Of a DNA stretch of 64,000 nt, positions 17,283 through 64,000 are shown piece by piece. Source of the stretch: Pristiophorus japonicus (Eukaryota); assembly GCF_044704955.1 (NCBI RefSeq), contig NC_091977.1, positions 261,702,001-261,766,000 on the forward strand, given 5' to 3'. Position 1 is the first letter of the stretch. Each line of letters opens with the position of its first letter. The notes below the pieces were generated by a model. It was not told where the DNA came from. It worked only from the letters and a program-made list of their open reading frames with translations, and did no database searches. The position numbers were made by a program, and so were the translations under genes.

Positions 17283-17354
17283 ACTGAAAGTAAATCTATG
17301 TGTTTGTGTGTGCATTTGTGAGAGAGATGGGTACTGTGTGTGTGTTTGCGTGTG

Positions 17355-19700: not shown

Positions 19701-19792
19701 AGAGAGACAGGTGTGCATGTGGACATTGGGTGAGGACAGGAATAAGCCTGGTTATTATTTTCTCCACAGTGGAATACTCTGCCAGTACTCAC

Positions 19793-22641
19793 TGTCATGT
19801 ATCCTACATGGCTACTGTTGATACTATCAAAAGGTGTGCCACCAGAGGCCACAGCAGTGGGAGACTTGTAGGTTATCTGTTCAGGTGTGCCTGGTCTAGT
19901 ATAAAAGGCAGGCCACCAGGTGTGATCCTCACTCTGGAGTTAACAAATAAAGAACTAAGGTCACTACAGTTCAAGTACAACACATTGCTTTGTGGAGTCA
20001 TTACCAGAGCGTCTAAGGACACAACAATTGGCGACGAGATTTCGAACTTTCACACGAAAATGGCTACCCTTGGTACGTTGCAGCAGTTTGCCGATGGTGA
20101 TGATTGGGATGCCTTTGTGGAGAGGCTATAACATTTCTTCACAGCAAACGACCTGGCAGGAGATGACCCGGCCACACTGGCTGATAAGCGGCGAGTTATC
20201 TTGCTAACCAGTTGTGGGCCCACCATCTATGGCCTCGTCAGAGACTTGCTGGCACCAGCGAAGACAACGACCAAGACGTACAAGAAGCTCGTAACCCTGA
20301 TCCATGAGCAACTCAAGCCCAAGGAGAGCATCCTCACAGCCAGACACCGGTTCTATACCCATCGACAGCCCGAAGGCCAGGAAGTCGCGAAGTACGCCGT
20401 AGACCTCAGGAGGGTGGCTACTCAAGTAGCACCATGCTGGCGTTGCGGATGGAATCACAAGGCTCACCAGTGCCGCTTAAAGACTATGTATGCAAAGGCT
20501 GCCGCACAAAGGGCCACCTCCAGCAAATATGTAAGAGAAATATGACTCACTGTGTTGATGAAGAGTCTGCAGATGGCCAGGAATCCAGCGCGGATTATGA
20601 ATCGCGAGGCAGAGAGGCAGCCCAGTCCCATGGGGAGGTACATAGCATGTTTACCTGTACAACCGAGTGTTCCCCGCTGAAGATGGAAGTCGAGATAAAG
20701 GGCGTTCCAGTCTTCATGGAAGTGGACACGGGGGCGAGCCAGTCAGTGATGAATCAAGAAGCCTCTGAGAGGATATGGGACAATCAATGAGAACGATCCA
20801 AGTTGATGCACACCTACACCGATGAAATCATCCCCGTCGTTGGTAGCGCAAATGTAAAGGTACTCTATGATGGCGCGGTGCACAAGTTACCTCTGTGGAT
20901 TGTTGCAGGTGATGGACCAACGCTACTCGGCAGGTGGATGGAGAAGATCCATTGCAAATGGTAAGATTTCACCCCTCCAGCGATCGACGCCCTCTGTGCT
21001 CAGAGGCAAAGCATGGCCTCACCTGAGGGTGGACCCTGCACCAGAGAGCAGACCAGCATGGCACCCGAGGCACAGACCGCTCAGCACGACTGCGTGGAGA
21101 TGATCCAGTTGAGACGACCCGAACGCACCTTCCAGGCTCCAGTGTCAGGAGTCCGGAGGAAGAAAATCGGATCCAGAGGCGACTTCCAAGCTTTGGAGGC
21201 AGAACCGGGAGAGAAGAGGATCACCGCAGTCGACATCGTGGAGGGAGGAATGATGGCACCCAAACCACAAGGTGAAGCGCGGAAGACAAAGATGGTCACA
21301 GCCAAACCACGAGGTGCAGCGTTGATGGAGCAACACGTGGCATGAAACGGAGAAGCGAATTGGGGTAAAGAAAGCAAGGATCTCTTAAAGGAGACCGGCA
21401 ACCCACCACAATTAGAGGGACAGTTCCACACACTTAAGCAATGTAATAGTAATTGTAAGTCAGAGGAAAAAGGTGAAAATGATCATGTAAAATGTGCAAC
21501 TGATAATCTGAATTGTATATACACAACCAGTGAGGAAAAGTCGGCAATTATGTAAAATGTGTAATTGATGATCTGAACTGTGCACATACAACTAGCGAGA
21601 AAAAGTCACGCAATCACAATCGGACCCACAGTGTGTCCAACATAAGTAATGAAAAGTTGTGCGATGCAGGATTTCAACTGCATGCAGCCAATGCAGTGAG
21701 CAGACACCCATCGGGAGCACAAAGGTCCAGTGAGTGACCCAATGCTGTAGCCTGTGTCCCGGGGACCAGAGTCATGCACCATGGAATGTGGCCACAAGCA
21801 GCCGTCACACACGAGCTGCAGAGCAAGTGATCTCAGCAGGGCAATGACACCGGTATCAATACCACGATACCCCTGATCAGCTGAACCTCTCAGGCACCCG
21901 ATGGCACCAACTGCCATGAGCCTGAAGGAGCAGACTGTACTAAGGCGCAGTCCACAGACTCCAAAGGGACCACGCCAACAGCCCCGAGAGCAGGCTACTG
22001 GAACCAAATGGGTTCCCACTGCCAGCACCGGGCACTGAGCCGCCACCAGACTGCAGGGACACAACCCAGCAGCCCCGGAACTAGTTTGTCCTCACGCACC
22101 GGTCACTGCATCGATAAGGCATCCAACGTACTTGTCGCACTACGGAACCACAAATATAATGCAAAAGCGATTTTCCTGAATTTGAATGCTAGGAGCCCCC
22201 GCCATAATCAATGTGGGGGGTGGGGGGGGAGAATAGAGTGGTTAGGAACACACACAAACTAACAACCACCAACACTCTACTGCACCAGCCACTCACCCAA
22301 GATTGAAATGACCTGCCAAGGGTCAACTGGACAGAGCCCACATAGAGCTAAGACCAGTGCACAGTCAATTCAGAGGCGGTTTGCACTAAAGGCTCAGGGG
22401 AGAGTGATGTCATGTATCCCACATGACTACTGTTGGTACTATCACAAGATGTGCCACCAGAGGGCTCAGCAGTGGGAGACTTGTAGGTTACCTGTACAGG
22501 TGTGCCTGGCCTAGTATAAAAGGCAGGCCACCAGATGTGATCCTCACTCTGGAGTTAACAAATAAAGGACTAAGGTCACTACAGTTCAAGTACAACACAT
22601 TGCCTCGTGGTGTCATTACTAGAGTATCCAAGGACACAATA
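19793..22641 (+). mobile_element. Non-autonomous Gypsy (Mag-like) LTR element with gag and protease remnants only
   Basis: Direct 234-bp LTRs at 19793-20026 and 22408-22641, TSD CTCAC, PBS TGGCGACGAG at 20029, PPT GGGGAGAGTGA. Zinc knuckles CWRCGWNH and CKGC..KGH, protease VDTGAS. No RT or integrase motifs. Confidence 0.9.
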
Positions 22642-24018
22642 CTCACCATCAAGGCTCACAGGTTAATGTCCTCTGGGCGAAGGTGCTGGAGGGAGACCAG
22701 CTTTGATAGAACCTTGTTCTAGGATATAAGGCAGAGAGAAAAGTGATGGAGAAAACAAACACACACACACATGTTTATGGTGAATCATTTTTATTACAAG
22801 TTAAACATTGATGCCCTGAACTTTCGCAAGGGTTGTCCTAATCTCCCACCGTAACTTCTCACCGTAAGCTGGAGATCAGTGGCGAAATTACAAAATAGTC
22901 TGAAAGTAGCTGTTTAGTCTCTTTAATTGTGGGTTCTGCAAAAATCCTGCCAAGCTTCTCTCCACAGATGCTCAGGGCCTGAATTTTTCTGTTAAAGTTC
23001 GCACATTATGTAAACCACCATCTTGAAAGCAAACCAAAATTGACGTGCTGATGGGCTTAGAACTGCAGTTCTGTCAATGCAACTGCTGCCGCTGTAGTTT
23101 TTTAATCTTAAAATTTAGTTTGCTAAGAAAAGGCATTGGAAAATAATAGAGAATAACTTGTCACGGCATTGGAGCAGGAGATTTCTTCAAGCAGCTTGTT
23201 TGCAGCGGAACCAAACCAAACATTTCCTTCACAACCAATGGCACTTTTCATGAACAAATATGTCCTTTGAAAATTTCAAGCAGTTTTTCAGGAAAGGAAG
23301 GAGTAACTTGCTCTTTGCCATGCTTCCCTATCGTCTTCACCAAAAATGAGCTTCATCAGATTTGTTCAGGTTCTCAGCTGGCCAAAACCACATTCGTTGC
23401 CCAACTCTTGTTGCCCTGAGAAACTGGGCCTTTTCCTTGTATGTTAATGGTGCTCCCACAACAGTATTAGCTAGGGCTTCCAGAATTTTGCCCAATGTCA
23501 ATCAAGGAATGGCAGTATATGTCCAACTCAGGCAGCTTTGTCACTTGGAGGTGATGGTGCTTCTTTGACATTGTTGCTCTTGTCCTTCTCAGTAGTAGAG
23601 GGCATGGGGCTGAGGGAGTAAGTTTGGAGAGTTACTGTACTGCATTCTGTAGACCATACATAGTGCAGATTTAGCCTGCTGGTGATACTCGGGCAGATAT
23701 TGAGTCAAGAGGCTGGATGCCAGTTAATTGCACTGTGTAATCCTGACTGATGTTGACATTCTTGTGTTGCAGCTTCATCCATTCAAATGAACAGTGAGCG
23801 TTTCGCTTTTGACTTTCTCCTTGTATATGGTGGAGAGGTGAGCCACCCGTCGCAGGGTAACCAGTCACTATCCTGTTCATGTGGCTGATCCACTTAAACT
23901 TCTAGTCAGTGGTAACGCCCAGGATGCTGATGGTGTGGACTTGGTGATGATGGTGGTGGCACTGAAGGTCACGGCCAAGTGATTAGGTCTTCTCTTGTTT
24001 GAGATAATCATTGCCTGG

Positions 24019-27000
24019 TGTAGTGTCCTTACACCTTACTATAGAATGACACGAGGCATGTACTGCAGACAAGGTCACTACGTAACCTGAACCTTTAATC
24101 CCAGGACCAAGAAATGCTGACCCTGCATTGGACCTCCCTTTACATACCTGGATGACCAAGTGAGGAGTGTCTCCCACAAGCTCACCCCCTCTGGTCAAGG
24201 TGTGCATTTCTCAGGTGTATACAGTGTACAGTGTTGTTACGCAAAGGTTACAGTTATGTGAAGGTTACAAACATGACATCACCTCCCCCCAACGTCTTTG
24301 GGTCAAAGATTGAGTCTTTCAGGCGGTCGACACTCTCTCATGGAGCGCCGCAGTTGGGGCTCTGGTTGTTGAGCCTTGGCATGCGTCTCTGTCGCCTGAG
24401 GTGATTCCGGCCTGTCCGGGCTGGCCGCAGGGACTGTGCATGCTGGTGAATGTCCTTGTTGCTCGTTCACTGGCAGTGGTGTGGGTGACATCTCATGATC
24501 TTCGTCAGGTTCCTCAGTGTCTATGCTGAACCTTTTCTTTACTTGGTCCAGATGTTTGCGGCATATCTGCCCATTGTTAAGTCTGACCACTATGACCCTA
24601 TTCCCCTCTTTGCCAATTACAGTACCCTCAAGCCACTTGGGCCCCAAAGCATGATTGAGAATGAATACAGGGTCATCAATTTCTATGCATCTCCACACTG
24701 AGTTGCGATCATGGCACTCGATTTGGGACTGGCGCTTACCCTCAACAATGTCTGACAGGTCTGGGTGAATGAGGGCCGGCCGCGTTTTAAGCGTGCATTT
24801 CATGAGTAGTTCCGCGGGCGGGACTCCCGTGAGTGAATGCGGGCGGGACCTATAGGCCAGCAGGAGGTGCTGAAGGGAGGGTCCTTGAATCTGGAGCATG
24901 CCCTGTTTTATGATTTGAACTGCACGATCTGCCTGGTCATTGGAAGCCGGTTTGAACGGTGCTGTCCTGACGTGTTTGATACCATTACCCGACATAAACT
25001 CCTGGAATTCATAGCTAGTGAAACACAGGCCATTGTCGCTAACCAGGATGTCCGGCAAGCCGTGGGTCGCAAAGACCGTACGCAGACTTTCCACGGTGGT
25101 GGATGTCGTGCACGAATTCAATATGATGTACTCAATCCATTTCAAGTATGCATCGACAACAATCAGGAACATTTTTCCCATGAACAGGCCCGCATAGTCT
25201 ACGTGATACCTGACCATGGCCTGATGGGCCAGGGCCATGGGCTGAGTGGGGCCTCCCTGGGGGCATTTCCCAGCTGAGAACACGTCGTGCACCTGCGAAC
25301 CCAGTGTTCCAGGTCTGAGTTAATTCCCGGCCACCATACATGTGCCCGGGCAATGGCCTTCATAAGCACGATGCCTGGGTGCTCGCAGTGGAGTTCCCTG
25401 ATGAATGCTTCCCTTCCTTTCTGGGGCATGACTACCCGGCTGCCCCATAGCAGGCAGTCGGCTTGGATGGAGAGCTCGTCCATCCATCTGAGAAACGGCC
25501 TGACCTCCTCGGGACACGGTCCGTGTGCGGGCGCCCAATCCCCAGTCAGGACACATTTCTTTATCAGGTTGTAGGAGGGGATCTCTGTTGGTCCAGATTT
25601 TGATCTGGCGGGCTGTGATGGGGGAGCCTGTGGTGTCAAAAGCCTCAACGGCCATGACCATCTCAGCGCTTTGTTCCGATGCCCCCTCAGTGGTCACCAG
25701 TGGGAGCCTGCTGAGCGCGTCAGCGCAATTTTCGGTGCCTGGCCGGTGTCATATGGTGTAGTCATATGCAGCCAGCGTGAGGGCCCACCGCTGTATGTGA
25801 GCTGACGCATTGGCACTGATAGCCTTGCTGTCAGACAACAGGGATGTTAACGGTTTCTAGTCCGTTTCTAACTCGAACCTTCTGCTGAAAAGGTACTGGA
25901 GCATCTTTTTCACCCCGTAGACACATGCGAGTGCTTCCTTTTCAACCATCCCATATCCCCGTTCTGCCTGGGAGAGCGACCTGGAGGCATAAGCCACAGG
26001 TTAGAGTTGGCCCTCATCATTACTCTGCTGCAACAAGCACCCAACCCCTTTGGATGATGCATCACACGTTAAAACCAGTTTCTTACAGGGGTTGTACAAG
26101 GTCAACAGCTTGTTAGAACAAACCAGATTCTGCGCTCGATTGAAAGCCCATTCTTGACAGTCTCCACAAAACCATTCACAACCTTTACGCAGGAGCACGT
26201 GCAGCAACTCCAACAATGTGCTTAAGTTCGGCAGAAAGTTCCCGAAGTAGTTCAATAGTCCCAGAAATGACCGCAACTCCGATGTGTAGCCGGGCGTGGG
26301 TGCACGACGGATCCCCTCCGTTTTGGATTCAGTAGGCCGGATCCCGTCTGCGGCAACCGTCCTGCCCAAAAACTCGACCTCTGGGGGAAAAACACACACT
26401 TGGATTTCTTTAGTCACAAGCCTACCCGATCCAGTTGGCATAGCACCTCCTCCAGGTTGTGGAGGTGTTCCTCGGTGTCTCGACCCGTGATAAGGATGAC
26501 ATCTTGGAATACGATTGTTCCAGGGATGGATTTAAGCAAGCTTTCCATGTTCCTCTGGAAGATAGCGGCCGCTGAACGAATGCCAAATGGACACCTGTTG
26601 TAAACGAATAGCCCCTTGTGCGAAGTGATGGTGGTCAGAAGCTTGGATTCTTCAGCCAGTTCCTGAGTCATGTAGGCTGAAGTGAGGTCCGACTTGGTGA
26701 ACAGCTTGCCATCTGCCAGCGTGGCAAAAAGATCCTCCGCTCTCGGAAGCGGGTATTAGTCCTGTAGTGACACTCGGTTGATGGTGGCCTTGTAGCCGCC
26801 ACAAATCCTGACCGAGCCATCTGCTTTAAGGACAGGAACGATGGGGCTTGCCCAGTCACTGAATTCAATGGGCGAAATTATGCCCTCTCTTCGCAGCCTG
26901 TCCAACTCACTCTCAATTCTCTCACACATCACATATGGCACGGCTCTGGCTTTGTGGTGCACTGCTCTGGCATCCAGGGTGATGCGTATCACTACTTTGG

Positions 27001-28666
27001 TGCCCTTAAAGGTCCCGACACCTGGTTGAAAAAGTGGCTCGAATTTTTTAGGACCTGTGAGCATGAACTTCGCTCCACAGATGAAATGGCGTGCACATCC
27101 CCCCCATTTCCAGTTCATCTCGGCTAGCCAGCTCCTCCCCAAGTGCGCGGGACCATTCCCCGGGACAATCCAGCCGGTTCTCCGATCCATTGTGTGTGAC
27201 CACCAAGTTTGCACTGCCTAGTACTGGGATGATCTCTCTGGTGTACATCCGTAGCTACGTGTCAATGCGTTCCAGTTTGGGCCTGTTAGCTTTGAGTGGC
27301 CATAATTATTCAAATTGTTGGGCACTCATAAGTGACTGGCTGGCTCCTGTGTCCAGCTCCATGCGTACTGGGATGCCATTTAATAGAACTTTCATAATCA
27401 TAGGTGGCGTTTTGGTGTACGAGCTGTGGATATCTGCCACATGAACCCGCTGGACTTCAGCGTCCATAGCTTTGCCCCAAGCATCACCCTGCCTTGCAGA
27501 CCCCTCGTCAGGTTCCTCTGCCTCGTAAACTAGACTCGCTACGGGCTTTCTGCAAATTCTGGCCAGATGTCCACTGAAGTTACAGTTTCTACAGATAAAT
27601 TGTTGAAATCTACAGGTTTTCGCAGCATGTCTGCCACCGCACCTCCAGCATGGGCTGAGATTGTTGTGAATAAAGGAACTATTACCAGGCATTCCTCTCT
27701 GATTGTCTCTGTGATTACTCCTGAGCACGCTGTTGCTGAGTGTCAATGGTCCCATCCCAGGACGCATTGTCCCTTGTTTTGCCAATTGCGTGAATTGCCA
27801 ATCCCCCTGCCATTGTCTCTGTTGCTGGCCCACCCTCGAGCCTGTTGCTGCCTGGGCAGTGTTGAATTACCGTTGCCCTTTTGTGGCGTTGTGTCTCGTT
27901 TACAATGTTAACTCCCTGGTCCATCGCCAGGTTGGAACCAGGGCTGCGCACATAAATTATCTTGGTCTCCTCTTCCCCTGCCATGAAGGTCTGAGCTATC
28001 AGCGTTGCCCTTTCCAAAGTCAAGTCCTTGGTCTCAATACGCTTCCTGAAAATCCCGGCAGGACCAATGCCCTCAATGAACAAATCCCTTAACATCTCCC
28101 CCCTGCAGGCGTCTGTGAACTTAAAGAGGATGGCCAAACGCCGAAGGTCCGCAATGAAGTCCGATATGCTTTGTCCCCCCCGATGCCAGTGTGTAAAGAA
28201 CTGGTGCCGGGCCATGTGTATACTGCTCGCCGGTTTGAGGTGCTCACTGATCAGAGTGCTGTGCTCTTCAAAGGACTTGTCCACCGGCTTCTCGGGTGCT
28301 AGCAGGTCTTTCATCAGCGCATACGTCTTGGATCCACAGCTGGTCAGTAGATGCGCCCTCTGTTTGCCAGTCCTTTGTGACAAAGCTCTGCTGGAGCCTC
28401 TCAGTGAAATCGTCCCAGTCCTCACCAACACAGTACCGTTCCTCTGTGCAATCGGTGACCATCCTCATGGGTCATTGATTCCCGTTTCTCGTCGCCAAAT
28501 GTCGTGTCCTTATACCTTACTATAGAATCACATGAGGCATGTACTGTAGACAAGGTCACTGTGTGACCTGAACCTTTATTCCCAGGACCAAGAAGTGCTG
28601 ACCCTGCGTGGGACCTCCCTTTATATACCTGGATGACCAGGTGAGGAGTGTCTCCCACAAGTTCAC
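24019..28666 (-). mobile_element. Gypsy (Mag-like) LTR retrotransposon, full gag-pol pseudogene, 5' LTR truncated
   Basis: Direct LTRs at 24019-24278 and partial 28500-28666. PPT adjacent to 24279; PBS (reverse complement CTCGTCGCCA) at 28488-28497. Gag, two CCHC knuckles, LDTGAS, RT, RNase H and integrase appear in Gypsy order. Confidence 0.93.
24303..25292 (-). pseudogene. Gypsy integrase (rve) region
   Basis: HVDYAG, VVDAY..WIE, VSDNG, SN.QADRAVQ (catalytic E altered to D). Ends RRSMRECRPPERLNL. Confidence 0.85.
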
Positions 28667-29065: not shown

Positions 29066-29240
29066 GTTACATCTTAAAGGGTGGAAGATGCCTGTGCGTG
29101 GATTTTTTTAACGTGTGGTAACCATTGCACACCAGCCACCACACGGGCTTGACAGAGCTAGGTCTTGGTCCACTGACGAGGATTGACCAAGACGATTGGA
29201 GACCATCTCTGTTGCGCCTCCCCTGGGCCCCGACCCCGCT
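29066..29240 (-). mobile_element. Fragment of RTE-tailed SINE
   Basis: Strong match to 37100-37250 (AAGGGTGGAAGATGCCTGTGCGTGGATTTTTTTAAC...CACACCAGCCACCACACGGGCTT). Confidence 0.8.
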
Positions 29241-30500
29241 GTTGTTAAATGCTGCGCCGTTCCTGGGCCACGGTCCCAATGCTGTTAAATGCTGCGCCGT
29301 TCCTGGGCCACGGTCCCAATGCTGTTAAATGCTGCGCCGTTCCTGGGCCACGGTCCCAATGCTGTTAAATGCTGCGCCGTTCCTGGGCCACGGTCCCAAT
29401 GCTGTTAAATGCTGCGCCGTTCCTGGGCCACGGTCCCAATGCTGTTAAATGCTGCGCCGTTCCTGGGCCACGGTCCCAATGCTGTTAAATGCTGCGCCGT
29501 TCCTGGGCCACGGTCCCAATGCTGTTAAATGCTGCACCGTTCCTGGGCCACGGTCTCAATGCTGTTAAATGCTGCACCATTCCTGGGCTGTGGTCCCGAC
29601 GCTGTTAAATGCTGCGCCGTTCCTGGGCCACGGTCCCAATGCTGTTAAATGCTGCACCATTCCTGGGCCATGGTCCCGACGCTGTTAAATGCTGCACCAT
29701 TCCTGGGCCATGGTCCCAATGCTGTTAAATGCTGCGCCGTTCCTGGGCCACGGTCCCAATGCTGTTAAATGCTGCGCCGTTCCTGGGCCATGGTCCCAAT
29801 GCTGTTAAATGCTGCACCATTCCTGGGCTGTGGTCCCGACGCTGTTAAATGCTGCGCCGTTCCTGGGCCACGGTCCCAATGCTGTTAAATGCTGCGCCGT
29901 TCCTGGGCCACGGTCCCAATGCTGTTAAATGCTGCACCATTCCTGGGCCATGGTCCCGACGCTGTTAAATGCTGCACCATTCCTGGGCCATGGTCCCAAT
30001 GCTGTTAAATGCTGCACCATTCCTGGGCCATGGTCCCGATGCTGTTAAATGCTGCACCATTCCTGGGCTGTGGTCCCGACGCTGTTAAATGCTGCACCAT
30101 TCCTGGGCCGTGGTCCCGACGCTGTTAAATGCTGCACCATTCCTGGGCCGTGGTCCCGACGCTGTTAAATGCTGCACCATTCCTGGGCTGTGGTCCCGAC
30201 GCTGTTAAATGCTGCACCATTCCTGGGCCGTGGTCCCGACGCTGTTAAATGCTGCACCATTCCTGGGCTGTGGTCCCGACGCTGTTAAATGCTGCACCAT
30301 TCCTGGGCCATGGTCCCGATGCTGTTAAATGCTGCACCATTCCTGGGCCATGGTCCCAATGCTGTTAAATGCTGCACCATTCCTGGGCCATGGTCCCAAT
30401 GCTGTTAAATGCTGCGCCGTTCCTGGGCCATGGTCCCGATGCTGTTAAATGCTGCGCCGTTCCTGGGCCATGGCCCCTACGCTGTTAAATACTGTGCTGT
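29241..30500. repeat. 40-bp minisatellite, 31 full units plus a partial unit
   Basis: Unit GCTGTTAAATGCTGCRCCRTTCCTGGGCYRYGGTCCCRAY in perfect register over 29241-30480, with no spacers. Confidence 0.97.
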
Positions 30501-31257
30501 CCCTCGCTGGGCTCGACCGCCTTCCCTCTTGTTACACTCAGTCAAATGCTGCTTTGATGTCGAGGGCAGCTACTCGCCCATCTCCTCCGTCATTCGGCTC
30601 GAGCCCATAACTCGATCATGTCTGAAGCTGAGTGGTTCTGGCGGAATCTGAAGTGAGTTTTGCCGAATAGGGAGCAGGTAATGGTTGATGGCACCCTTGA
30701 TGACTTCTTTCATCCCTTTCCTGGTAAGTTATAGAAGTCTGAGGAGACATTAATTGACTGGGTTAAATATGTCCTCCCTTTTGTAAATGTGATGTATGTG
30801 GACAATATTCCACATTGTCAGCTAGATGCTAATGTCAGATGCAATAGCAATAGTTTGGCTGCGGGAATGGTTCATTCTGATGCTCAGGTGTGATGCACTA
30901 CAACTGGAATATTATCAGGATGTATAACCTTCACTGTGTCCAGTGTACTCAGCTACTTAATTTCATGTAATACAAACTGAATTGTTAGGATGTTGACATT
31001 TTTGATGGTGGGTGCCTTGTGATGAGGCTAAGTGGGATTGTCCGTTTGGCATTTTTGGCGGAAGATGCTTCAATCATGTTTCTTAACCTTGTGTGCAGGA
31101 CTCTGCCATGGTTGATAATGGGGATGTTCATCAATATGTCTCTTGTTAGTTGACTAATTGGCCAATACCATTGTCAACTGGATAGGGCTACAGAGCACTG
31201 GTCTGATCTGGATATGTGTTTGTCTAGTTCTCCATAGCCTCCTGGATTTGGTGTTGA

Positions 31258-33580: not shown

Positions 33581-33952
33581 GCCATTTTTCATTGAACAAC
33601 TCCAATATTAACTGGCTTGTATGTTTACAGTTAGTGACAGATAGATTTTTGGATAATAGATGTCAGAATTATTTATTTATTTTACACTGCATCGTGTTAC
33701 AGTGTTAATACTGCTGTGTTTGGTTTAGAACAACTACATTTTATTTTACTCCGGCAATTCTGGTCAATTTCCAGAATTGCCGGAGTAAAATAAAATGTAG
33801 TTGTTCTAAACCAACACAGCAGTATTAACACTGTAACACGATGCAGTGTAAAATAAATAAATAATTCTGACATCTATTATCCAAAAATCTATCTGTCACT
33901 AACTGTAAACATACAAGCCAGTTAGTATTGGAGTTGTTCAATGAAAAATGGC
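33581..33952. repeat. Near-perfect long palindrome (183/182-bp arms, 7-nt loop)
   Basis: 33581-33763 is the reverse complement of 33771-33952 except for one substitution and one 1-nt indel. Loop TCAATTT. Confidence 0.97.
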
Positions 33953-35110: not shown

Positions 35111-35968
35111 AATATATTTTTAGATATAGATAAATATTAAATAAAATATAATGTAATTCTGCATGAGTTGAGTTCCAGATCTCACCAAGCCTGAAGGAAA
35201 AAGATTTGCAGGGCGACGGAGAAAAGCCGGGGAATGGGACTATCTGAAGTGCTCTTGCAGAGAGCCAGCTCGGCAGGCCAAATAGCCTTCTTCTGTGCAG
35301 TAACCATTCTATGATTCCAAGCCACTAGGGTCTTTGTCACAGGGAAGCAGACCGTATTGGACGGAGTGTCATACAGGACCACGTGCACAACGGCATGGGT
35401 CTGAAACACATTTCTCAATGTGTCGTATGTTAACATAGAATAGAATGATAGATTTCACCTTATGTCTATCTGCCCGATCTATTAATCCGTTCCTCTCGTT
35501 CCTGCAGTGTGCTTCACAATATTTTTGTTTATATACAAATTTTGATATTGTGCCCCCTATATCCAAATCCAGATCAATATATCAATGTATATAATGTTGG
35601 AAATCTCTGGGTCAGGTAGCATCTGTAGAAAGAAAGCTGTAGTCAGAACTGGAGAGTGTTTGGAAATAACATATTCTTAACAAGCACTGAAAGGGGGAGG
35701 GAAAGAAAGAACAAAAGGGAAGGTCTGTGATAGGGTGGAAGGCAGGAGAGATTAGAGAGACAAAAGGGATGATGGGCCGAATTGAAATGGTGATGCCAGG
35801 AGTTAGAAAAACATTAGTCAAGGTAGGGTGTGAATGGCGGGATAATGACCAGCTGCCATTAGAGACAAGGAGAAAAAAAGAAACAAAGCAGGCTCAGGGC
35901 AGAGAGGGGCTGGGGTGGGGGGCCGGGGGGAGGGGGTGCGGGGGAAGGAAGCCAAAGATTTGCAGCGG

Positions 35969-36278
35969 TTACGCTCTGAAATTGTTGAATTCGATGTTGA
36001 GTCCAGAAGGCTGTAAAGTGCCTAAACGAAAGATGAGGTGCTGTTCCTCGAGCTTGTGTTGAGCTTCGCTGAAACAGTGTAGGAGACCGAGGACAGAGAG
36101 GTCAAAGTGGGAGTGGAGAGGAGAATTAAAGTGACAGGCGACCGGAAGCTCAGGGTCACACTTGCGGACTGAACGGAGGTGCTCTGCAAAGTGGTCACCC
36201 AATCTACACTTGGTCTCCCCAGTGTAAAGGAGACCACATCGTGAGCAACGAATACAGTATATTAAATTGAAAGAAGTA
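35969..36278 (-). pseudogene. Penelope GIY-YIG endonuclease C-terminal fragment (inverted copy)
   Basis: NLIYCIRCSRCGLLYTGET..RL..HFAEH...HF...EQHLIFRLGTLQPSGLN. Confidence 0.85.
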
Positions 36279-36997: not shown

Positions 36998-37286
36998 CAT
37001 CATAGGCAGTCCTTCGAAATGAGGATGACTTGCTTTCATGCCAAAAAGGGATGAGTTCACAGGTGTTTCAATGAAAGACCTAACATTCTGGATCCTAAAC
37101 TATATCTTGAAGGGTGGAAGATGCCTGTGCGTGGATTTTTTTAACATGTGGTGGCCGTTGCACACCAGCCACCACACGGGCTTAACAGAACTAGGTCTTG
37201 ATCCAGTGGCAAGGATTAACCAAGACAATTGGAGACCAGCTCTGCTGCACGGACCCAGTGCGCACACATATCGCAGTGTGGGCTGG
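36998..37286 (-). mobile_element. RTE-tailed non-autonomous retroelement (SINE), 5'-truncated
   Basis: TSD TCCACT (36992-36997 and 37287-37292). The 3' end (reverse complement AAGCAAGTCATCCTCATTTCGAAGGACTGCCTATGATG) matches the RTE tail at 19656-19700. Confidence 0.85.
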
Positions 37287-37649
37287 TCCACTATATGCCC
37301 ACTGACTCCCACAGCTACCTAGACTACACTTCCTCCCACCCCGCATCCTGCAAGGACTCCATTTCATTCTCCCAGTTTCTCCGTCTCCGCCGCATCTGCT
37401 CTGACAACGCCACTTTTCACACTAGTGCCTCTAACATGTCTTCCTTTTTCCTCAATAGAGGATTCCACTCCGCCGTGGTTAACCTCGACCGTGTCTGTTC
37501 TATTTCTCGTACCTCTGCTCTCACCTTAGGGAGACCAAACGCAGATTGAGTGACCGCTTTGCGGAACACCTCCATTCAGTCCACGAGTGTGACCCTGAGC
37601 TTCCAGTCACCTGTCACTTTAATTCTCCACTCCATTCCCACTCTCCATC

Positions 37650-40600
37650 TGTCATGTACATACATGCAGGTTGTAGCCACCAGATGGCATCATTGTTGGA
37701 GGCCACTGAGCAGCACGCATATGGCCAGCCATTTTGTGAGTCAGGCACTTTGGGACTAAATAAAGCACAGACAAGGTTGTACATTGCTTCGTTAAACAGT
37801 ACTTTGTTTGAACCTTTATCGTTTACATAACATTTGGCGATGAGAATGAAAGAACCTTTATTTGCAAAATGAGCACGATTGGATTTTTAGAGCGATTCAT
37901 GAAGGGAGACCATTGGGCAGACTTTGTGAGCTGTTTGAACCAGTACTTCGTGGCCAACAAAATGAAGGGGGCCGACGATGCAGATCAGCACCAGGCTGTG
38001 TTCCTCACTGTGTGCGGTTCAAAGATCTACAGTCTGGTAAAGAATCTACTCATGCCTAGTTATCCAACAGAGAAAACGTACAAGGAGTTGTGTACATTGG
38101 TACGGGAGCACCTCAAGCCAGACGACGGCATCATCATCTCGAGGTGCAAGATTTATACACACGTTTGATCGGACGGCCAGAGCGCGGCGCAACTCGTTGC
38201 CGACCTGAGATGTCTAGCGGGACGGGGTTGTCAGACATGTTGCGGGACTTCTTTGTTATCGGTATCAACCACGAGGTGATCCTGCACAAACTTCTGGTGG
38301 TGGAGGAGTTGGATTTAAAAAGGGCCATCCAGATCACTCAATCATGTGTGACGACGGACAGGAGTTTAAAGCAAATGTCGGTGAAGAACCGAACCTCGGC
38401 AATTACTGTAAATGCAATTGATGAGGCGTTCGGCAGAGCGGCACATGGCAGGGCCTATCCGGCTGCATTCGCGAAACCTGTGGCTGCCCAAAGTCCGCCA
38501 GCGGGAATGTATCTGACTTCTCCGTGTTGGCATTGTGGGGGAAATCATCGGCACCAGCAGTGCCGATTTAAGCAATATAGTTGCAAAGGCTGTCTGAGAG
38601 TGAGGTATCTCCAGCGCAAGTGTCCGCAGATGAGCAAGCGAGCTGTGACGCATCACGTGGAGGATGAGAGTCAGACTAGTGCGGCTCCGGATACGCAATC
38701 CGAGATGCCAGAGGATGAACTGTATGGACTGTACTCTTTCATAACCAAGAGTAAACCAATTTTGAATAATGTGAAGTTTAACGGGTTACCGGTATCAGTG
38801 GAACTGGACATAGGGGCGAGTCAATCGATCATGAACATGAATGAGAGGGCATTTGATAAGCTGTGGGATACTAAGACTGCGCGATCCAGGCTGAGCCCTG
38901 TTAACGCCAAGCTGCGAATGTACACCAAAGAACTGATAAAGGTGACTGGCAGTGCACAAATTAATGTAGAGTATAACGGTACGGTTCACGAGTTACCGCT
39001 GTGGATTGTTCCAGGCAATGGCCCAACGCTGCTCGGCAGGAGCTGGTTGGAGGAAATCAGATGTGACTGGAATGACATAAAGGTGTTGTTGTCGGATGAA
39101 GATACATGTGCCCAAGCATTGAGCAAGTTCGAACCGGGGATCGGCAACTTCACGGCAGCCAAGGTGCAGATCTATGTGGACTCAGATGCAAGACCCATCC
39201 ATCATAAAGCTCGGGCAGTGCCGTATATGGTGAGGGAGGTCAAAATTGAACTGGACAAACTCCAGCATGAAGGGATCATATCACCGGTTGAATTTAATGA
39301 ATGGGCCAACCCCATTGTTCCTGTGCTGAAAAGTGATGGCACAGTCAGAATCTGTGGAGACTACAAGGCTACGATCAACAGGGTTTCGAAACAAGATCAG
39401 TACCCATTACCAAAGGCTGATGAACTGTTTGCGACGCTAGCCGGAGGGAAGTCATTCACAAAACTGGACTTGACTTCGGCCGATATAACGCAAGAGTTGG
39501 TCGAGACGTCAAAGAGACTTTAGTGCATTAACACACACAAAGGACTGTTTATTTACCACAGGTGCCTGTTTGGAATTCGCTCGGCTGCAGCAATATTCCA
39601 GAGGAATATGGAAAGTCTACTGAAGTTCGTTCCCAGAACTGTCGTGTTCCAAGATGACATCCTGATCACCGGTCGTGACTCCAAGGAATATCTGAACAAC
39701 CTGGAAGAGTTTCTACTGCGTTTGGACAGAGTGGGACTCAGACTTAAATGCTCAAAGTGCGTCTTCATTGCACCGGAGGTCGAATTCCTCGGGAGGAAAA
39801 TCGCCGCTGATGGCATCAGACCTACTGACGTGAAAACCAAAGCTATCAAGAATGCACCCAAGCCACAGAACGTGACGGAGCTGCGTTCATTCCTGGGTCT
39901 ACTCAACTACTTTGGTAACTTCCTACCTAAATTGAGCACTTTACTTGAACCACTGCACATGCTATTGAGAAAAAGCAACAACTGGGTTTGAGGCGCATTG
40001 CAAAACAGAGCTTTCAAGAAAGCCACCAATCTGCTTTGCTTGAACAAGCTGCTGGTACATTATGACCCATGTAAATGTTTAGTTTTGGCCTGTGATGCAT
40101 CGTCATATGGAATTGGTTGCGTGTTACAACAAGCCAATGAGTCGGGGAAACTTCAACCTGTCACGTATGCATCCAAATGTTTGTCTAAAGCCGAAAGAGC
40201 CTATAGTATGGTAGAAAAAGAAGCTTTAGCACGTGTGTACAGTGTTAAAATGATGCATCAATAACTGTTCGGTCTGAGATTTGAATTAGAGACCGCTCAT
40301 TTTGTTGTTTTCCGAGAACAAAGGTACCAATACCAACTCTTCATCCCGTATCTAAAGGTGGGCGCTGACATTATCTGCCTATGATTATGTCATTCACCAC
40401 AGACCTGGCACAGAGAATTGTGCCGATGCTTTGAGCCGGTTGCCATTGCTCACCGGAGGTGGAAACGCCACAACCGGCAGATTTAATGTTAATCATGGAT
40501 GCTTCTGAGAGTGAAGGTAGCCCTGTCACGGCTCAACAATTCAAGACCTGGACCAGCCAGGACCCGATTTTATCGGTGGTAAAGGGTTGCATCCTCAAAG

Positions 40601-42111
40601 GGGATTGGTCTGCCATACCTAAGCAAATGTGCGAGGAGGCAAGGGCGTACATTCGTCGCAAGGACGAACTGTATATTCAAGCAGATTGCATATTGTGGGG
40701 CAATTGAGTGTAATGCCTAAGAAAGGAAGAGAGAAGTTTGTGCGTGAGTTACACAGCACACATCCTGGTATAGTGATGATGAAGGCCATCACCAGGTCCC
40801 ACGTATGGTGGCCAGGAATTGATTCTGAGCTGGAAGCATGCATGCATCAGTGCCACACCTGCATGCAGCTCAGCAAAGCACCAGCGGAATCGCCGCTGAG
40901 TCTGTGGTCATGGCCATCCAAACCTTGGTCCTGGATCCATGTAGATGGTCCAGGATCCATGTAGGTCCCTTCCTGGGCAAGATGTTTTTAGTGGTGGTGG
41001 ATGCTTATTCGAAGTGGATAGAATGCATAATCATGTCATCCAGTATGTCCACAGCAACCATAGAGAATCCCAATGTAATGTTTGCGACACATGGTCTGCC
41101 TGACATAGTGGTGAGCGACATTGGGTCGTGCTTCACCAGTCAGGAGTTTGTAAAACTTAACGGCATAAAACATGCAAGGTCAGCACTATTCAAGCTTGCA
41201 TCCAACGGGCAAGCAGAACATGCAGTACAAATTATCAAGCAAAGCATGAGGAGGGTAACCCAAGGGTCACTGCAGACCCGCTTGTCTTGCATACTGCTGA
41301 GTTACAGGACAAGACCCCACACACTCACAGGGGTCTCGCCTGCTGAACTCATGATGAAAAGAGGTCTTAAGACCAAATTATCTCTTGTATACTCTGATTT
41401 AAGTAATCATGCTGAATACAGAAGACAGAGTCAACAAGGGTACCATGATCGCGCAACTGTATCATGCGAGATTTCTGTTAATGATCCTGTACATGTATTG
41501 AATTATGGTCAGGGTCCCAAATAGATCGCTGGTACGGTCATGGCCAAGGAGGGCAACAGGGTTATTAAGCTCAAGAATGGGCAAACTTGCAGAAAACACA
41601 TGGATCAAAAAAGCAGAGGCACACAGACGAGCCAGAGCAGTCGGACGAAGAAACTGTCGATGACCAACCAACCTACCAGCAGCCTTCAGTGGACTCAAGG
41701 TTCATCAATGAACCCGGAATTTCCATCACGGACTTGTTCAATAAAAATGGACTTGCAATTCCTGACATGGCCACTTCCACCCCCAACAAGTCAGCCATCC
41801 AGCCACCAGCCACATCAGACTCCGTACACTCACCCAAGGCCAGAATTGAACTGAAACGGTCAACCCAGGAGCGTAAAGCACCTGACCGTCTCAACCTGTG
41901 AAAGAGAATGTTATGTATGCAATAAAGGTTCAAACTGAGTATTGTTTAATTAAGCAAGGTACGACCTTGCATGTGTTTTATTTAGTCCCAAAGTGCCTGA
42001 CTCACAAAATGGCTGGCCTTTTTTACCCGAGCAGCACCATATGCGTGCTGCTCAGTGGCCTCCAACAATGACGCCATCTGCTGGTTACAAACCGCATGTA
42101 CATACGTGACA
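37650..42111 (+). mobile_element. Gypsy (Mag-like) gag-pol element flanked by INVERTED LTRs
   Basis: 37650-37832 is the reverse complement of 41909-42111 (the latter with a 20-bp extra segment). TSD CCATC on both sides; PBS TGGCGATGAG at 37835. Gag-PR-RT-RH-IN remnants span 37869-41901. Confidence 0.92.
37869..41901 (+). pseudogene. Gypsy gag-pol polyprotein, disrupted
   Basis: MSTIGFLERF gag start, CWHCGGNH, LDIGAS, WANPIVPVLK, RICGDYK, FTKLDL, FQDD, CDASSYG, HPGIVMMK, VVDAYSKW, end RKAPDRLNL. Multiple stops and frameshifts. Confidence 0.9.
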
Positions 42112-42381
42112 CCATCCTTGGTCTCCTACACTGTTCCAGCAAAGCTCAACGCAAGCTCGAGGAACAGCACCTCATCTTTCGTTTAGGCACTTTGCAGTCT
42201 TCAGGACTCAACATCGAGTTCAACAATTTCAGAGCGTAATCGCTACCGATCTTTGGCTCCCTTTCCACTCCGCCTCCTCCCCCCCACCCCGAGCCTGTTT
42301 ATTTTTTTCTCCTTGTCTCTAATGCCAGCTGGTCATTATTCCACCATTCACACCCTATCTTGACTAATGTTTTTCTAACTC

Positions 42382-42418
42382 CTGACGAAGGGTCGTTGAC
42401 CTGAAATGTTAACTTTGT
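42382..42418 (+). ncRNA. Degenerate minimal hammerhead ribozyme of the Penelope terminal repeat
   Basis: CTGACGA, stem II (GGTC GTT GACC), then GAAA at 42403. Lies in the Penelope 3' repeat, where such ribozymes are known to occur. Confidence 0.6.
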
Positions 42419-56634: not shown

Positions 56635-59030
56635 AGAAACATAGAAAATAGGTGCAAGAGTAGGCCATTCGGCCTTTCAAGCCTGCACCACCATTCAGCA
56701 AGATCATGGCTGATCATTCACCTCATTACCCCTTTCCTACTTTCTCTCCATACCCCTTGATCTCTTTAGCCGTAAGGGCCATATCTAACTCCTTCTTGAA
56801 TATATCCAACAAATTGGCCTCAACAACTTTCTGCAGTAGAGAATCCCACAGGTTAACAATTTTCTGAGTGAAGAAGTTTCTCCTCATTTCGGTCCAAAAT
56901 AGCCTACCCTTATTCTTAGACTGTGATCCCTGGTTCTGGACTTCCCCAACATCGGGAACATTCTTCCTGCATCTAACCTGTCCAATCCCGTCAGAATTTT
57001 CTATGTTTCTATGAGATCCCCTCTCATTCTTTTAAACTCCAGTGAATACAGGCCCAGTTGATCCAGTCTCTCCTCATATGTCAGTCCTGCCATCCCGGGA
57101 ATCAATCTGGTGAACCTTCGGTGCACTCCCTCAATAGCAAGAACGTCCTTCCTCAGATTAGGAGACCAAAACTAAACACAATATTCCAGGTGAGGCCTCA
57201 CCACGGCCCTGTACAACTGCAGTAAGACCTCCCTGCTCCTATACTCAAATCCCCTAGCTATGAAGGCCAACATGCCATTTGCCTTCTTCACAGTCTGCTG
57301 TACCTACATGTCAACTTTCAATGACTGATGTACCATGACACCCAGGTCTCATTGCACCTCCCCTGTTCTTAATATGTCATCATTCAGATAATATTCTGCC
57401 TTCCTGTTTTTGCCACCAAATTGGATAACCTCACATTTATCCACATTATACTGCATCTGCCATGCATTTGCCCTTCACCTAACCTGTCCAAGTCACTCTG
57501 CAGCCTCATAGCATCCTGCTCAGAGCCCACACTGCCACCCAACTTAGTGTCATCTGCAAACTTGGAGATATTACTCTCAATTCCTTCATCTAAATCATTG
57601 ATGTATATTGTAAATAGCTGGAGTCCCGGCACTGAACCCTGCGGCACCCCACTAGTCACTGCCTGCCATTCAGAAAAGGACCCATTCATTCTGACTCTGC
57701 TTCCAGTCTGCCAACCAGTTCTCTATCTGCGTCAGTATATTACCCCAATATCATGTGCTTTGATTTTGCACACCAATCTCTTGTGTGGGACCTTGTCAAA
57801 AACCTTTTGAAAGTCAAAATACACCACATCCACTGGTTCTCCCTTGTCCACTCTGCTAGTTACATCCTCAAAAAATTCTAGAAGATTTGTCAAGCATGAT
57901 TTCCCTTTCATAAATCCATACTGACTTCGACCGATCCTGTCACTGCTTTCCAAATGCGCTGCTATGTCATCTTTAAAATTGATTCCAACATTTTCCCCAC
58001 TACCGATGTCAGGCTAACCGGTTTATAATTGCCCGTTTTCTCTCTCCCACCTTTTTTAAAAAGTGGTGTTACATTAGCTACCCTCCAGTCTATCGGAACT
58101 GATCCAGAGTCGATAGACTGTTGGAAAATGATCACCAATGCATCCACTATTTCTAGGGCCACTTCCTTAAGTACTCTGGGATGCAGACTATCAGGCCTGG
58201 GGATTTATCGGCCTTCAATCCCATCAATTTCCCTAACACAATTTCCTGACTAATAAGGATTTCCTTCAGTTCCTCCTTCTCACTAGACCCTCGGTCCCCT
58301 ACTATTTCCGGAAGGTTATTTATGTCTTCCTTTGTGAAGAAGAACCAAAGTATTTGTTCAATTGGTCTGCCATTTCTTTGTTTTCCATTATAAATTCACC
58401 TGATTCTGACTGCAAGAGACCTACATTTGTCTTCACTAATCTTTTTCTCTTCACATAGCTATAGAAGCTTTTGCAGTCAGTTTTTATGTTCCCAGCAAGC
58501 TTCCTCCCATACTCTATTTTCCCCCTCCTAATTAAACCCTTTGTCCTCCTCTGCTGAAATCTAAATTTCTCCCAGTCCTCAGGTTTGCTGCTTTTTCTGG
58601 CCAATTTATATGCCTCTTCCTTGGATTTAACACTATCCCTAATTTCCCTTGTTAGCCATGGTTGAGCCAACTTCCCCGTTTTATGCCAGACAGGGATGTA
58701 CAATTGTTGAAGTTCATCCATGTGATCTTTAAGTGTCTGCCATTGCCTATCCACCGTCAACCCTTTAAGTATCATTCGCCAGTCTATTCCAGCCAATTCA
58801 CGTCTCGTACCATCGAAGTTACCTTTCCTTAAGTTCAGGACCCGAGTCTCTGAATTAGCTGCGTCACTCTCCATCTTAATGAAGAATTCTACCATATTAT
58901 GGTTACTCTTCCCCAAGGGGCCTTGAACAACAAGATTGCTAATTAATCCTTTCTCATTACACATCACCCAGTCAAGGATGGCCAGCCCTCTAGTTGCTTC
59001 CTCGACATATTGGTCTAGAAAACCATCCCT
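56635..59030 (-). mobile_element. CR1 LINE, 5'-truncated
   Basis: ORFs 58320..59081, 57962..58162, 57732..57953 and 57384..57689 (KFADDTK); tail at 56635. Confidence 0.92.
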
Positions 59031-62000
59031 ATACACTTCTCCCTCCTTAATGAAGAAGTACTTATAACAAATAATCATCATACATAACTTGCATGGTTAT
59101 ACATAACAAAGGATATGGAATTATTTTGCCATATTTGCAAATCAAACTTAACCACTGGTTTTCTGTTTCGAAAAGGATACCTTCGCTTTCGAACAGAACC
59201 TTCCAAACATTGAAGTTAGACTTATTCTGGGCTGATCCAAAGGAAAGTTTACCTCCAAGGGATGCCATTGATTTACATTTGAACTCTCTACAACTTCAGA
59301 CTGTCTCGAACTCAGACTTAAATTCTGACTTTCTCTTGGATTTGTTTCTAGTACATTTGATGTTGGATATGCTACTGGTACTGTGCTTGTAATAAGACTA
59401 TCTGATGAATCAGAAGTAATCAAATCATTCCAAATTTCAACTCCTTCCACATCTGAAGGTAAAATATGATCAATGTGAACAAAACTCAACTGTCCATGAT
59501 TAATCATCTTGACAAAATATGTGCGAGGACCACATATCTTCACCACTCTTTCTGGTAACTACTTTAACCATTTATGGTGATGGTTTTTCATTCTCATCTT
59601 CTGATTTAATTTCACACTTCTCTCTTTTATTCTAAATGGTAGCCTATTAAATTGATACAGGCCTAAATGAGTATTTATAGTCAAGCATGACTTGGACTCC
59701 ACATCTAGTTCAAGTTGTAAGTAAGCATTTTTAAGATCCAACTTTGAGAAAATCTGACCATCTGTCAGTGCTGTGAACAAATCTTCTACATTTGGCAATG
59801 TATTGGGGAGATTACCCTCGAGAACCTGGTTTATTTTATAATCACCACACAACCGTAACTTACCATCGGACTTAGGTACAACAACAATGGGTGTAGCCCA
59901 ATTACATAGATCTATTTTCGAGATAATGTTCGCAGTCTCTAGTCTTTTGAGTTCTTGCTCAACTTTCTCCTTGAGTGCATATGGTATGGGACGGGGCTTG
60001 CAGTAAACTGGTCTAGCATCTTTCTTTACTCTGACATTCGCCTTGAAGCCTTGGATCAGACTGCCTGTTTCACAGAACACCTTCGCATACTTCTTGGTTA
60101 TATCATCCTTCAATGCAAATCTCATTTCAACATGCAAAATCTCACTCCAATCCAGTTTCTGTGATCCCAACCAATTTCTTCCTAATAAGGCAAGCTTGTC
60201 TCCTGCCACTACGAAGAGAGGCAAGCGTGACCTGTTCCCTCTTTATTGTTTTAAACAGCTATGGCTGCATTATCAGTTGTCCACGAGGTGGAGCTATATA
60301 TATTACACTTATTGAGGTGCATAAAATTATATGGGGCCTAAATAGAGTTGATAGATGGGACCTATTTCCCTTATCAGAGGGGTCAACAACCAGGGAGCAT
60401 AGATTTAAAGTAATTGATAGGAAGTTTAGAGGATAGATGAAGGGAAATGTATTCACCCAAAGCATGGTGGGGGTCTGGAACTCACTGCCTGAAAGGGTGG
60501 TAGAGACAGAAACCCTCACCACATTTAAAAAGTACTTAGATGTGCACTTGAAGTGCCGTAACCTACAGGGTTACGGACCTAGAGCTGCAAAGTGGGATTA
60601 GGCTGGAAAGCTCTTTGTCGGCCGGCACGGACATGATGGGCTGAAATAGCCTCCTTCCATGCTGTAGAGTTCTATGATTCTATGATTTTCTTATTCAATG
60701 GGGATTCTAAAATCTGTCCAGATAGTGAGGAAATTGGTAACCAGAATATTTTATTTTTCTTGTGTTTTATGGGTTCATTACCATTTAATTTGTTTTTCTG
60801 CTACTTTTGTCTTTGTGGTCTCCCATGGTGCACACCTCCTAAACACAAGGTAAGTGGACAAGCTCCCAGACCTCTGCCAAAGCTGTCTTTGAGCTTACCA
60901 CCAGAAGCCTGGTGATAATCCTCTTGATTTTTTTTCTTCCTCCCTTCCTGGGAAAGGCACCTGGATTCATCTCAACCCGTTCCCTCACCACAAGGTTAAG
61001 ATAAGGAGCTGAGTGGGAATCAATCTTGTACCCTTTGCAGCACTGCTGTAAGTGCTTCATCTTTCCCACTGTCTAAATGGCTGCCCAGTTCGAGAGTTCC
61101 AGAAACAACATTCATTATTCATGCGGCACATCTGGGCATGTCCCACAAGCGTGTGGAGAGCATGAAGCTGAAAACAGCATAATCAAGAAAAGCAGGAGAG
61201 ATCGCAAAGAAAAAGCAGCAGGAGAGCCGGGGCAGAGGGAATATTGAAACTGAAAGGTGCAAACTGAGAAAAGTGTGGTTAAGATTTTATATTTAATGTA
61301 TGTTTCCTGCTAGTTTTTTCCCCTTGTATCTCCTGGGTGATTATCGTGCATACATTTGTTTTGGATTTACGTATCACCAATTGAAACATTTGTACATTTC
61401 CGAATTCATTTTCGCCTGTGTGTTTACAGAAAAATAAAAATATTATCAAGCAAATTTAGGAAAATATAAACAAAAAGTATAGTCTACAGCAGTTTTCCTA
61501 ACTTCAGCTTTTAGAAATTACTAATCATCAGCAGTGGCTATATACATATGTTCCATTAAGATTAATGAAGTATTGTTTTCTTAGTTTCACCCCATACCTC
61601 ATCCCTGTTAAAGGCACTCATGGGAATATACTTTCACAGGTGCTGATTGTTGACGATCTTCTTGTGTGAATCTGGATAGTGAGCATCCCTCTTCTCTTCA
61701 TTTATGAGGAGCCACGACATTCCTGGCATCAGCTGATGTCCACACTTCATACATTCCAGCAGGGGAATAGCTGTCCAGGGTTGGAACTCAGAGTTTCTGA
61801 GTCCAGTTGCAGTGTCCCCATCACCACGACTGCTGTGAATGAGATCAGCGAACTCTGCGTAGAGCAGAGATCAAAGCAGATATCGTTCTGGTTTGCATGG
61901 TGCACTGCCACTTAAATGCTTATCAGGCATTGAGGAGCCCAAATAAGTATTCTTTATGTGCCCCAGTGATATACAGGGTTTTGGTAGGAGGATCTGAGTT

Positions 62001-62834: not shown

Positions 62835-64000
62835 TAAAAAAAACCCTTAAGACTCTGTGTCTCAATGCGAGGAGCATTCGTAATAAGGTGGATGAATTAA
62901 CTGTGCAGATAGCTCTTAACGGATATGATGTAATTGGGATTACAGAGACATGACTCCAGAGTGACCAAGGCTGGGAACTCAACATACAGTGGTATTCAAT
63001 ATTCAGGAAGGATAGACAGAAAGGAAAAGGAGGTGGGGTAGCGTTGCTGGTTAAAGAGGAGATTAAGGCAATAGTAAGGAAGGACATTAGCTTGGATGAT
63101 GTGGAATCTGTATGGGTAGAGCTGTGGAACACTAAAGGGCAGAAAACGCTAGTGGGAGTTGTGTACAGACCACCAAACAGCAGTAGTGTGGTTGGGGATG
63201 ACATCAAACAGGAAATTAGGGATGTGTGCACGAAAGGTACAGCATTTATCATGGGTGACTTTAATCTACATATAGATTGGGATAACCAAAGTGGCAGCAA
63301 TATGGTGGAGGAGGATTTCCTGGAGTATATAAGGGATGGTTTTCTAGAACAACATGGCGAGGAACCAACTAGAAAGCTGGCCATCCTCGACTGGGTGTTG
63401 TGCAATGAAAGAGAATTAATTAGCAATCTTGTTGTGTGAGGCCCCTTGCGGAAGAGTGACCACAATATGGTTGAATTCTTCATTAAGATGGAGAGTGACA
63501 TAGTTAATTCAGAGACTAGGGTCCTGAACTTAAAGAAAGGTAGCTTCGATGGTATGAGACATGAATTGGCTAGGGTAGACTGGTGAATGCTACGTAAAGG
63601 GTTGACGGTGGATAGGCAATGGCAGACATTTAAAGATCACATGGATGAACTTCAATACTTGTACATCTCTGTCTGGCATAAAAATAAAATGGGGAAGGTG
63701 GCTCAACCGTGGCTAACAAGGAAAATTAGGGATAGTGTTAAATCCAAGGAAGAGGCATATAAATTGGCCAGAAAAAGCAGCAAACCTGAGGACTGGGAGA
63801 AATTTAGAATTCAGCAGAGGAGTACAAAGGGTTTAATTAGGAGGGGGAAAAGCTTATTAGGGTAAGTTTTCTGGGAACATAAAAACTGACTGCAAAAGCT
63901 TCTACAGATATGTAAAGAGAAAAAAATTAGTGAAGACAAATGTAGGTCCCTTGCAGTCAGAATTAGGTGAATTAGGCAAACAAAGAAATGGCAGACCAAT
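62835..64000 (+). mobile_element. CR1 ORF2 APE endonuclease region, disrupted, running off the window
   Basis: LNARSIRNK, IGITET, VYRPP, MGDFN, ILDWVL, SDH. Near-identical to the reverse complement of 58350-59030. Confidence 0.92.

Follow-up and report, generated by a model that had tools for sequence, protein, structure and literature searches.

Gypsy retrotransposon copies with an inverted 3′ long terminal repeat in Pristiophorus japonicus: a probable rare, recurrent side reaction of integration

How does a Gypsy retrotransposon come to carry its 3′ long terminal repeat (LTR) in inverted orientation? To our knowledge, standard LTR reverse transcription cannot yield inverted LTRs, and a copy with this structure lies at positions 37650-42111 of a 64,000-nucleotide stretch of the Pristiophorus japonicus genome (C1:261702001-261766000, hereafter the window). 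An earlier note, made from the letters of the window alone, had offered two readings of it, namely an aberrant cDNA inserted once or a member of an undescribed Gypsy lineage bounded by terminal inverted repeats (TIRs). Our results indicate that the window copy is an aberrant product of an otherwise canonical Gypsy family and that five further copies in the genome share its inverted 3′ LTR. These copies probably arose when integrase, in a side reaction that is rare but has recurred, inserted a pair of U3 ends. The features of the window copy and of its host element are the following.

37529..37644, plus strand: host Penelope element, left part (alignment to the paralog at 36106-36219)
37645..37649, unstranded: left target-site duplication (TSD), CCATC
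37650..37832, plus strand: 5′ LTR, direct (U3-R-U5), with an internal 20-nt deletion
37833..37844, plus strand: TT spacer and primer-binding site (PBS)-like TGGCGATGAG
37869..41901, plus strand: decayed gag-pol in Gypsy order, with protease (weak), reverse transcriptase (RT), RNase H and integrase (H2C2 and rve core)
41902..41908, plus strand: inner junction, with the polypurine tract (PPT) region gone (at least 26 of 27 nt), from junction letters and read unitigs
41909..42111, minus strand: 3′ LTR, inverted, U5 inward and U3 outward, of the same LTR subfamily as the 5′ LTR
42112..42116, unstranded: right TSD, CCATC
42117..42384, plus strand: host Penelope, right part, collinear with the left (alignment to the paralog at 35797-36093)

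The coordinates confirm the architecture that had been described: a direct 5′ LTR of 183 nt (TGTCATG...CATAACA), TT and the PBS, and an inverted 3′ LTR that begins 7 nt downstream of the integrase frame stop at 41899-41901. The right LTR is 203 nt long and lies on the minus strand with U3 outward, and both outer ends are indeed the U3 terminus. Its letters differ from those of the left LTR at 21 of 183 aligned positions, besides the 20-nt deletion in the left LTR, and the LTR termini form an 11-bp inverted repeat with one mismatch. Folding of the left LTR gave nothing notable (z 0.46). The AA at 41907-41908 is, as had been remarked, the complement of the TT after U5. CCATC is found on both sides, and both Penelope flanks align to one window paralog (35797-36219) with order and orientation kept. 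This collinearity rules out a chromosomal inversion at the window copy, in agreement with the earlier note. Read unitigs cross the inner junction without mismatch in all three runs examined (41876-41933, 41875-41932 and 41852-41932), runs X5-X13, with 4% of the words, being set aside. These unitigs stem from a single sample, which is probably the assembled one, and have 24-25 letters on the LTR side against a bridge rule of 31 letters; among the unitigs listed, none crosses the outer junction.

The interior is that of a Gypsy element. It matches the Pfam families RVT_1, rve, RT_RNaseH, RT_RNaseH_2 and Integrase_H2C2, with a weak gag-asp_proteas match (E 0.007), and the sole PDB match of its gag-pol is Ty3 Gag-Pol. 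The window copy has the protease-RT-RNase H-integrase order of Ty3/Gypsy elements, together with TG...CA LTRs, a PBS after the 5′ LTR and a TSD within 4-6 bp; it lacks the direct LTRs and the PPT before the 3′ LTR, which its family possesses. The gag-pol had been called full, which holds for its extent but not for its frame, broken by many stops and frameshifts. Likewise, the reported absence of the PPT is true of the window copy, with 3 nt (GAA) between the GAAAGA anchor and the inverted LTR against 27 nt to U3 in direct copies; this loss is unique to it, and the other five inverted copies keep the PPT. We take the PBS-like TGGCGATGAG to be of the tRNA-Ser type and, from this PBS and a gag with two CCHC-like arrays, presume that the element belongs to the Mag clade. 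As for the three other Gypsy elements of the window said to have direct LTRs, two are clear (19793-22639 and 24008-28666). The third candidate, at 14668-19701, is an old, 75%-identical direct pair whose minus strand shows a PBS-like motif at 19508, and is a probable further LTR element.

The 5.9 Gb genome was searched with 3′ junction patterns, in which the end of the internal region is joined to an LTR motif, as matched direct and inverted pairs. Exact patterns gave 580 direct and 2 inverted junctions, and patterns with up to 2 mismatches gave 2161 direct and 4 inverted (about 0.2%). Two further 3′ anchor pairs added two inverted copies, bringing the total to six from three patterns. Direct copies have the junction PPT-AT-TGTCA; the region is present in all 40 that were fetched, one of them with a deletion across it. 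On the 5′ side, two anchor pairs detected no real inverted LTR, against 612 direct 5′ junctions; four inverted-5′ matches at 3 mismatches proved to be direct, 3′ or solo LTRs. The bias towards the 3′ side (6 versus 0) has a p of 0.03, assuming equal detectability of both sides. Solo LTRs of the family of the window copy are common in the genome. At C9:137.54 Mb two solo LTRs, 8.3 kb apart with identical flanks, represent a tandem segmental duplication. The six inverted copies are given below with the two letters strings of the TSD and the inner junction.

Window copy: CCATC/CCATC (5/5); GAAAGA-G-AA-TGTT
C8:82522936-82527348: GGGCG/GGGGG (4/5); GGGTA-TGTT, with about 20 nt missing just after
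C5:109708433-109713486: CACAG/CACAG (5/5); GAGG[GT]TATG
C1:61831654-61835384: CAATG/CAGTG (4/5); GGGTAT-AAA-TGTT
C5:27335719-27340167, minus strand: no TSD; GGGTAT-T-AAA-TGTT
C1:122796367-122803342, minus strand: AAAGT/AAGGT (4/5); GGG[TAT]GTATG

A search of the genome with the junction and the LTR had been proposed as a check, and its outcome is divided: the inverted junction is not unique to the locus, being found at six sites, yet all six inner junctions are distinct. A TSD of at least 4/5 is seen in five of the six inverted copies, in these with U3 at both outer ends, and in 22 of 30 direct copies (40 were sampled, and 10 without a 5′ LTR in the fetched stretch were dropped from the pair statistics). 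In the copy at C5:27.34 Mb, about 41 nt of the left U3 are missing and a duplication of 27 bp of host sequence borders the element, and its inverted U3 end is exact; it looks like a natural one-ended integration.

The inner junctions differ in their letters and agree in their place. None of the six has U3 letters on the inner side, and in five the break lies at most 3 nt before U3, at the PPT/U3 boundary. Two copies break exactly after the AT of PPT-AT, the dinucleotide that integrase removes from the U3 end in established retroviral chemistry. All three copies with a whole U5 end, that is, half of the six, carry AA or AAA, the complement of TT plus the first PBS letter, and none of them extends further into the PBS; the chance of this recurrence, calculated post hoc, is roughly 2e-5. 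Since the letters after U5 are gone from an integrated 3′ LTR, the inverted LTR never went through normal integration at its U5 end. Letters were lost across the junction in four of the six inverted copies (three at microhomologies of 1-3 nt) compared with a single one of the 40 direct copies (Fisher p 4e-4), a loss that points to end-joining. The two LTRs of an inverted copy share subfamily letters, with a mean own-pair distance of 0.13 versus 0.41 to others over 13 subfamily columns (0 of 100000 permutations as low), and thus both LTRs of each copy come from one element; these columns were used because post-insertion changes dominate the whole-LTR nearest-neighbour ranking and render it uninformative. 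The LTRs of an inverted copy have diverged by 4-11.5%, as much as those of direct copies (median 6.6%; p 0.83), which makes the flip as old as the insertion. Taken together, these letters suggest that the flip likely predates integration.

The six inverted copies do not form a single clade. In a tree of the integrase 3′ end, with the six inverted copies and 16 of 18 direct ones (two were too short), the orientation label changes 4-5 times, and a single inverted clade is rejected (p-AU 3e-5). Considering also the counts of 2161 direct against 4 inverted junctions and the six differing junctions, the second reading of the earlier note, a TIR-bounded lineage, is not supported for the family as a whole. 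The copies at C1:61.83, C5:27.34 and C1:122.80 Mb belong to one subfamily (a 100/100 branch with one direct copy, and LTR markers). The PPT is richer in G in two of these three, and likewise in L079, the direct copy most closely related to them.

Starting from the observed structure, its recurrence, the PPT/U3 break, the untrimmed U5 letters and the TSDs, we infer four enzymatic steps. The plus-strand cDNA would first be nicked at PPT/U3, with re-primed plus-strand strong-stop DNA on the 3′ LTR; in Ty1 and Ty3, priming at the PPT takes place repeatedly and later strong-stop DNA occupies the 3′ LTR (PMC5371799, section 2.2). Integrase would then take the internal U3 as an end, and a cut of the minus strand after CA would free the 3′ LTR duplex. 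Thirdly, an intasome holding the left U3 and the internal U3 would insert both; the joint insertion of these two ends would be the reason for U3 at both outer ends and a 5-bp TSD. Finally, the leftover PPT-AT and the unprocessed U5-TT(T) would be end-joined, either exactly or with loss at microhomologies of 1-3 nt. Host repair joins the ends skipped by integrase in avian sarcoma-leukosis virus (ASLV) and HIV-1 (PMC5041404). The transcript of the product would have no R in the right sense at its 3′ end, leaving the product a dead end as far as normal retrotransposition is concerned. The aberrant cDNA of the earlier note survives here in its two U3 ends and its untrimmed U5, with AA or AAA in three of six copies, but not as a one-off event, given that it recurs at six sites.

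Several points weigh against two-U3 integration. The 3′-only bias is modest, since three 3′ anchor pairs stand against two 5′ ones and exact patterns alone give a p of 0.24. The break in the window copy lies 26 nt upstream of the PPT/U3 boundary, and the outer end of the copy at C5:109.71 Mb is TAACA, either U5-like or a single C-to-T change. Three of the six inverted copies come from one subfamily, which was excluded by design from the direct sample; the sample was picked by an exact motif altered in that subfamily. No intermediate has been seen, and the four steps rest on the junction letters of six old copies. Furthermore, a single pattern used on family B, the second family of the window (that of the LTR of 19793-22639, with the U5 spacer AT in place of TT), gave four matches and no copy of this kind, a weak negative with its direct copies uncounted; three of the four were opposite-strand insertions into the U3 of another copy, and the fourth was a deletion-bearing direct LTR. 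The three nested insertions, at C8:3.10, C2:158.82 and C3:91.63 Mb, are related Gypsy copies that lie on the opposite strand within the first 9-35 nt of the U3 of a family-B 3′ LTR. The TSD of the nested insertion at C8, GTAAC, was confirmed; the search pattern favours this zone, and a U3 insertion hotspot is possible.

Another route before integration would leave the same letters as two-U3 integration and seems to us rather unlikely. In its circle version, integrase cuts a 2-LTR circle at both U3 sites, leaving AT overhangs that are self-compatible and can be rejoined around a flipped LTR; in its reverse-transcription version, plus-strand strong-stop DNA is joined or jumps to the PPT end, and the cDNA, finished and bearing U3 at either end, integrates normally. 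Either would yield an identical GGGTAT-AAA-TGTT junction. HIV-1 and foamy virus integrases cut 2-LTR junctions, but the cleavage described concerns the palindromic U5-U3 junction, not PPT-U3 (PMC4372172). The extra T in GGGTAT-T-AAA is compatible with a filled-in circle junction, and equally with a non-templated addition. Dead-end plus-strand strong-stop DNAs do build up in Ty particles (PMC5371799), although no base pairing would guide a template jump at the PPT end.

A change after insertion is less probable still. The 3′ LTR may have been flipped in place through the 11-bp terminal inverted repeats, which are there with their one mismatch, and the U5-like outer end at C5:109.71 Mb would fit such a flip; a crossover within the terminal repeats, however, should leave TGTC inside and TAACA outside, and TGTC is inside in none of the six. 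Nor can an in-place flip give AA where the TSD is whole. Break repair that copied the 5′ LTR backwards would bring TT(T) along, yet it should strike 5′ and 3′ LTRs equally, need not end 2-3 nt past U5, as three of three do, and would make the LTR pair younger, which is not seen. An inverted 5′ LTR in a guppy endogenous retrovirus (ERV) was tentatively ascribed to recombination (PMC5210030).

We find it improbable that a TIR-bounded sub-lineage multiplied as such, even for the three copies of the shared subfamily. Two of their junctions are nearly alike and the third could be derived by later deletion; on the other side, these copies are 7-10% apart, as direct copies are, and their LTRs are not grouped 5′ with 5′. 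Direct copies outnumber inverted ones about 500-fold, the six inverted copies are not one clade, and an inverted 3′ LTR has no normal replication route. A reverse-inserted unrelated solo LTR or second copy, an inversion between opposed LTRs, autointegration or an assembly error is hardly credible, despite the opposite-strand nested insertions known in the genome (family B) and the abundant solo LTRs, in view of a whole element within matching TSDs in a collinear host, no residual direct 3′ LTR, two LTRs with the same subfamily letters and 11% apart, read unitigs across the inner junction, and an untrimmed U5 end where autointegration and nesting use the trimmed one.

Two-U3 integration, with its fixed PPT/U3 break and untrimmed U5, would provide a fossil record of the pre-integration intermediate proposed for Ty1 and Ty3, and suggests that a U3 end inside the cDNA can serve integrase as a substrate. 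It would also offer a one-step origin of TIRs around a Gypsy integrase, a concrete route for the Gypsy-to-Ginger transition. More speculatively, two-U3 integration at the PPT nick might be a general, undescribed by-pathway of LTR elements that, in about 1 of 500 insertions, places an integrase between 200-bp TIRs with two integrase-competent ends, from which Ginger-type elements could have originated from Gypsy; one subfamily may have a propensity for it, or may have passed on such an element by copying. We regard this extension as doubtful. The inverted copies themselves are dead and rare. The LTR finders known to us look for direct pairs only, and would therefore miss inverted-LTR copies.

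Compared with Ty3/Gypsy LTR retrotransposons, the family is canonical in its TG...CA LTRs, PBS, PPT, order of protease, RT, RNase H and integrase, and 5-bp TSD, and departs in six copies with an inverted 3′ LTR and U3 at both outer ends. The inversion circles of autointegration, reportedly described by Shoemaker et al. in 1980, are said to have a U5 end joined inverted to internal sequence. By that mechanism they use trimmed ends at scattered sites, unlike the untrimmed U5 at the PPT boundary of an integrated product found here. One-ended ASLV and HIV-1 integrations can carry additional viral sequence, in one orientation or the other, and long duplications of the host DNA, resembling the left end of the C5:27.34 Mb copy (PMC5041404); they have one abnormal host junction, whereas here both are normal in five of six copies and repair has taken place at a junction inside the element, always at about the PPT/U3 boundary.

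Ginger1 elements have a Gypsy-like integrase between inverted repeats of 40-270 bp starting with TGT, no RT and 4-bp CCGG-type TSDs, and they multiply; Bao et al. called the path from LTR element to DNA transposon unclear in 2010, and suggested that a pair of LTRs, inserted by chance in opposite orientations, gave rise to the TIRs (PMC2836005). The inverted LTRs of the window copy, 183 and 203 nt long and starting with TGTCA, fall within that range. In contrast, RVT_1 and RT_RNaseH are present, the TSD is 5 bp, and six distinct junctions outside one clade are not a multicopy family with shared termini and interior; the copies give no sign of further movement, and a Ginger identity was rejected. 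DIRS-1 is also a retroelement bounded by inverted terminal repeats, but it encodes a tyrosine recombinase and contains an internal complementary region (PMC7192593), where the window copy has a DDE integrase and TSDs. No tyrosine recombinase family matched any of the 16 longer frame pieces scanned, and in a self-comparison the LTR matched only the two termini, with no internal complementary region; a DIRS identity was thus set aside, the integrase and TSD being present. In PrERV-1, an endogenous LTR element of guppy, one of the two LTRs is likewise inverted; this is a single case, it concerns the 5′ LTR, and its junctions and mechanism are not worked out (PMC5210030). No description of the inverted-3′-LTR structure was found in the literature searched, from which most subscription papers and Repbase Reports are absent; the guppy case, mentioned in passing, was the sole related one, and PMC9785060, PMC6894440, PMC12789967 and bioRxiv 2022.12.06.519325 yielded nothing about inverted LTRs.

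Elsewhere in the window, a tandem array of more than 30 copies of a 40-bp unit occupies 29090-30600, and the sequence at its start (29068-29228) is similar to that of a short insert in the host Penelope at 37101-37261. Two LINE-like pieces at 58361-59037 and 63324-64000 are 89% identical and inverted, and the interval that separates them contains a fragment of a Gypsy RT (59691-60239). Finally, an inverted repeat of 145 nt, its arms 98% complementary and 82 nt apart, is located at 33581-33952.

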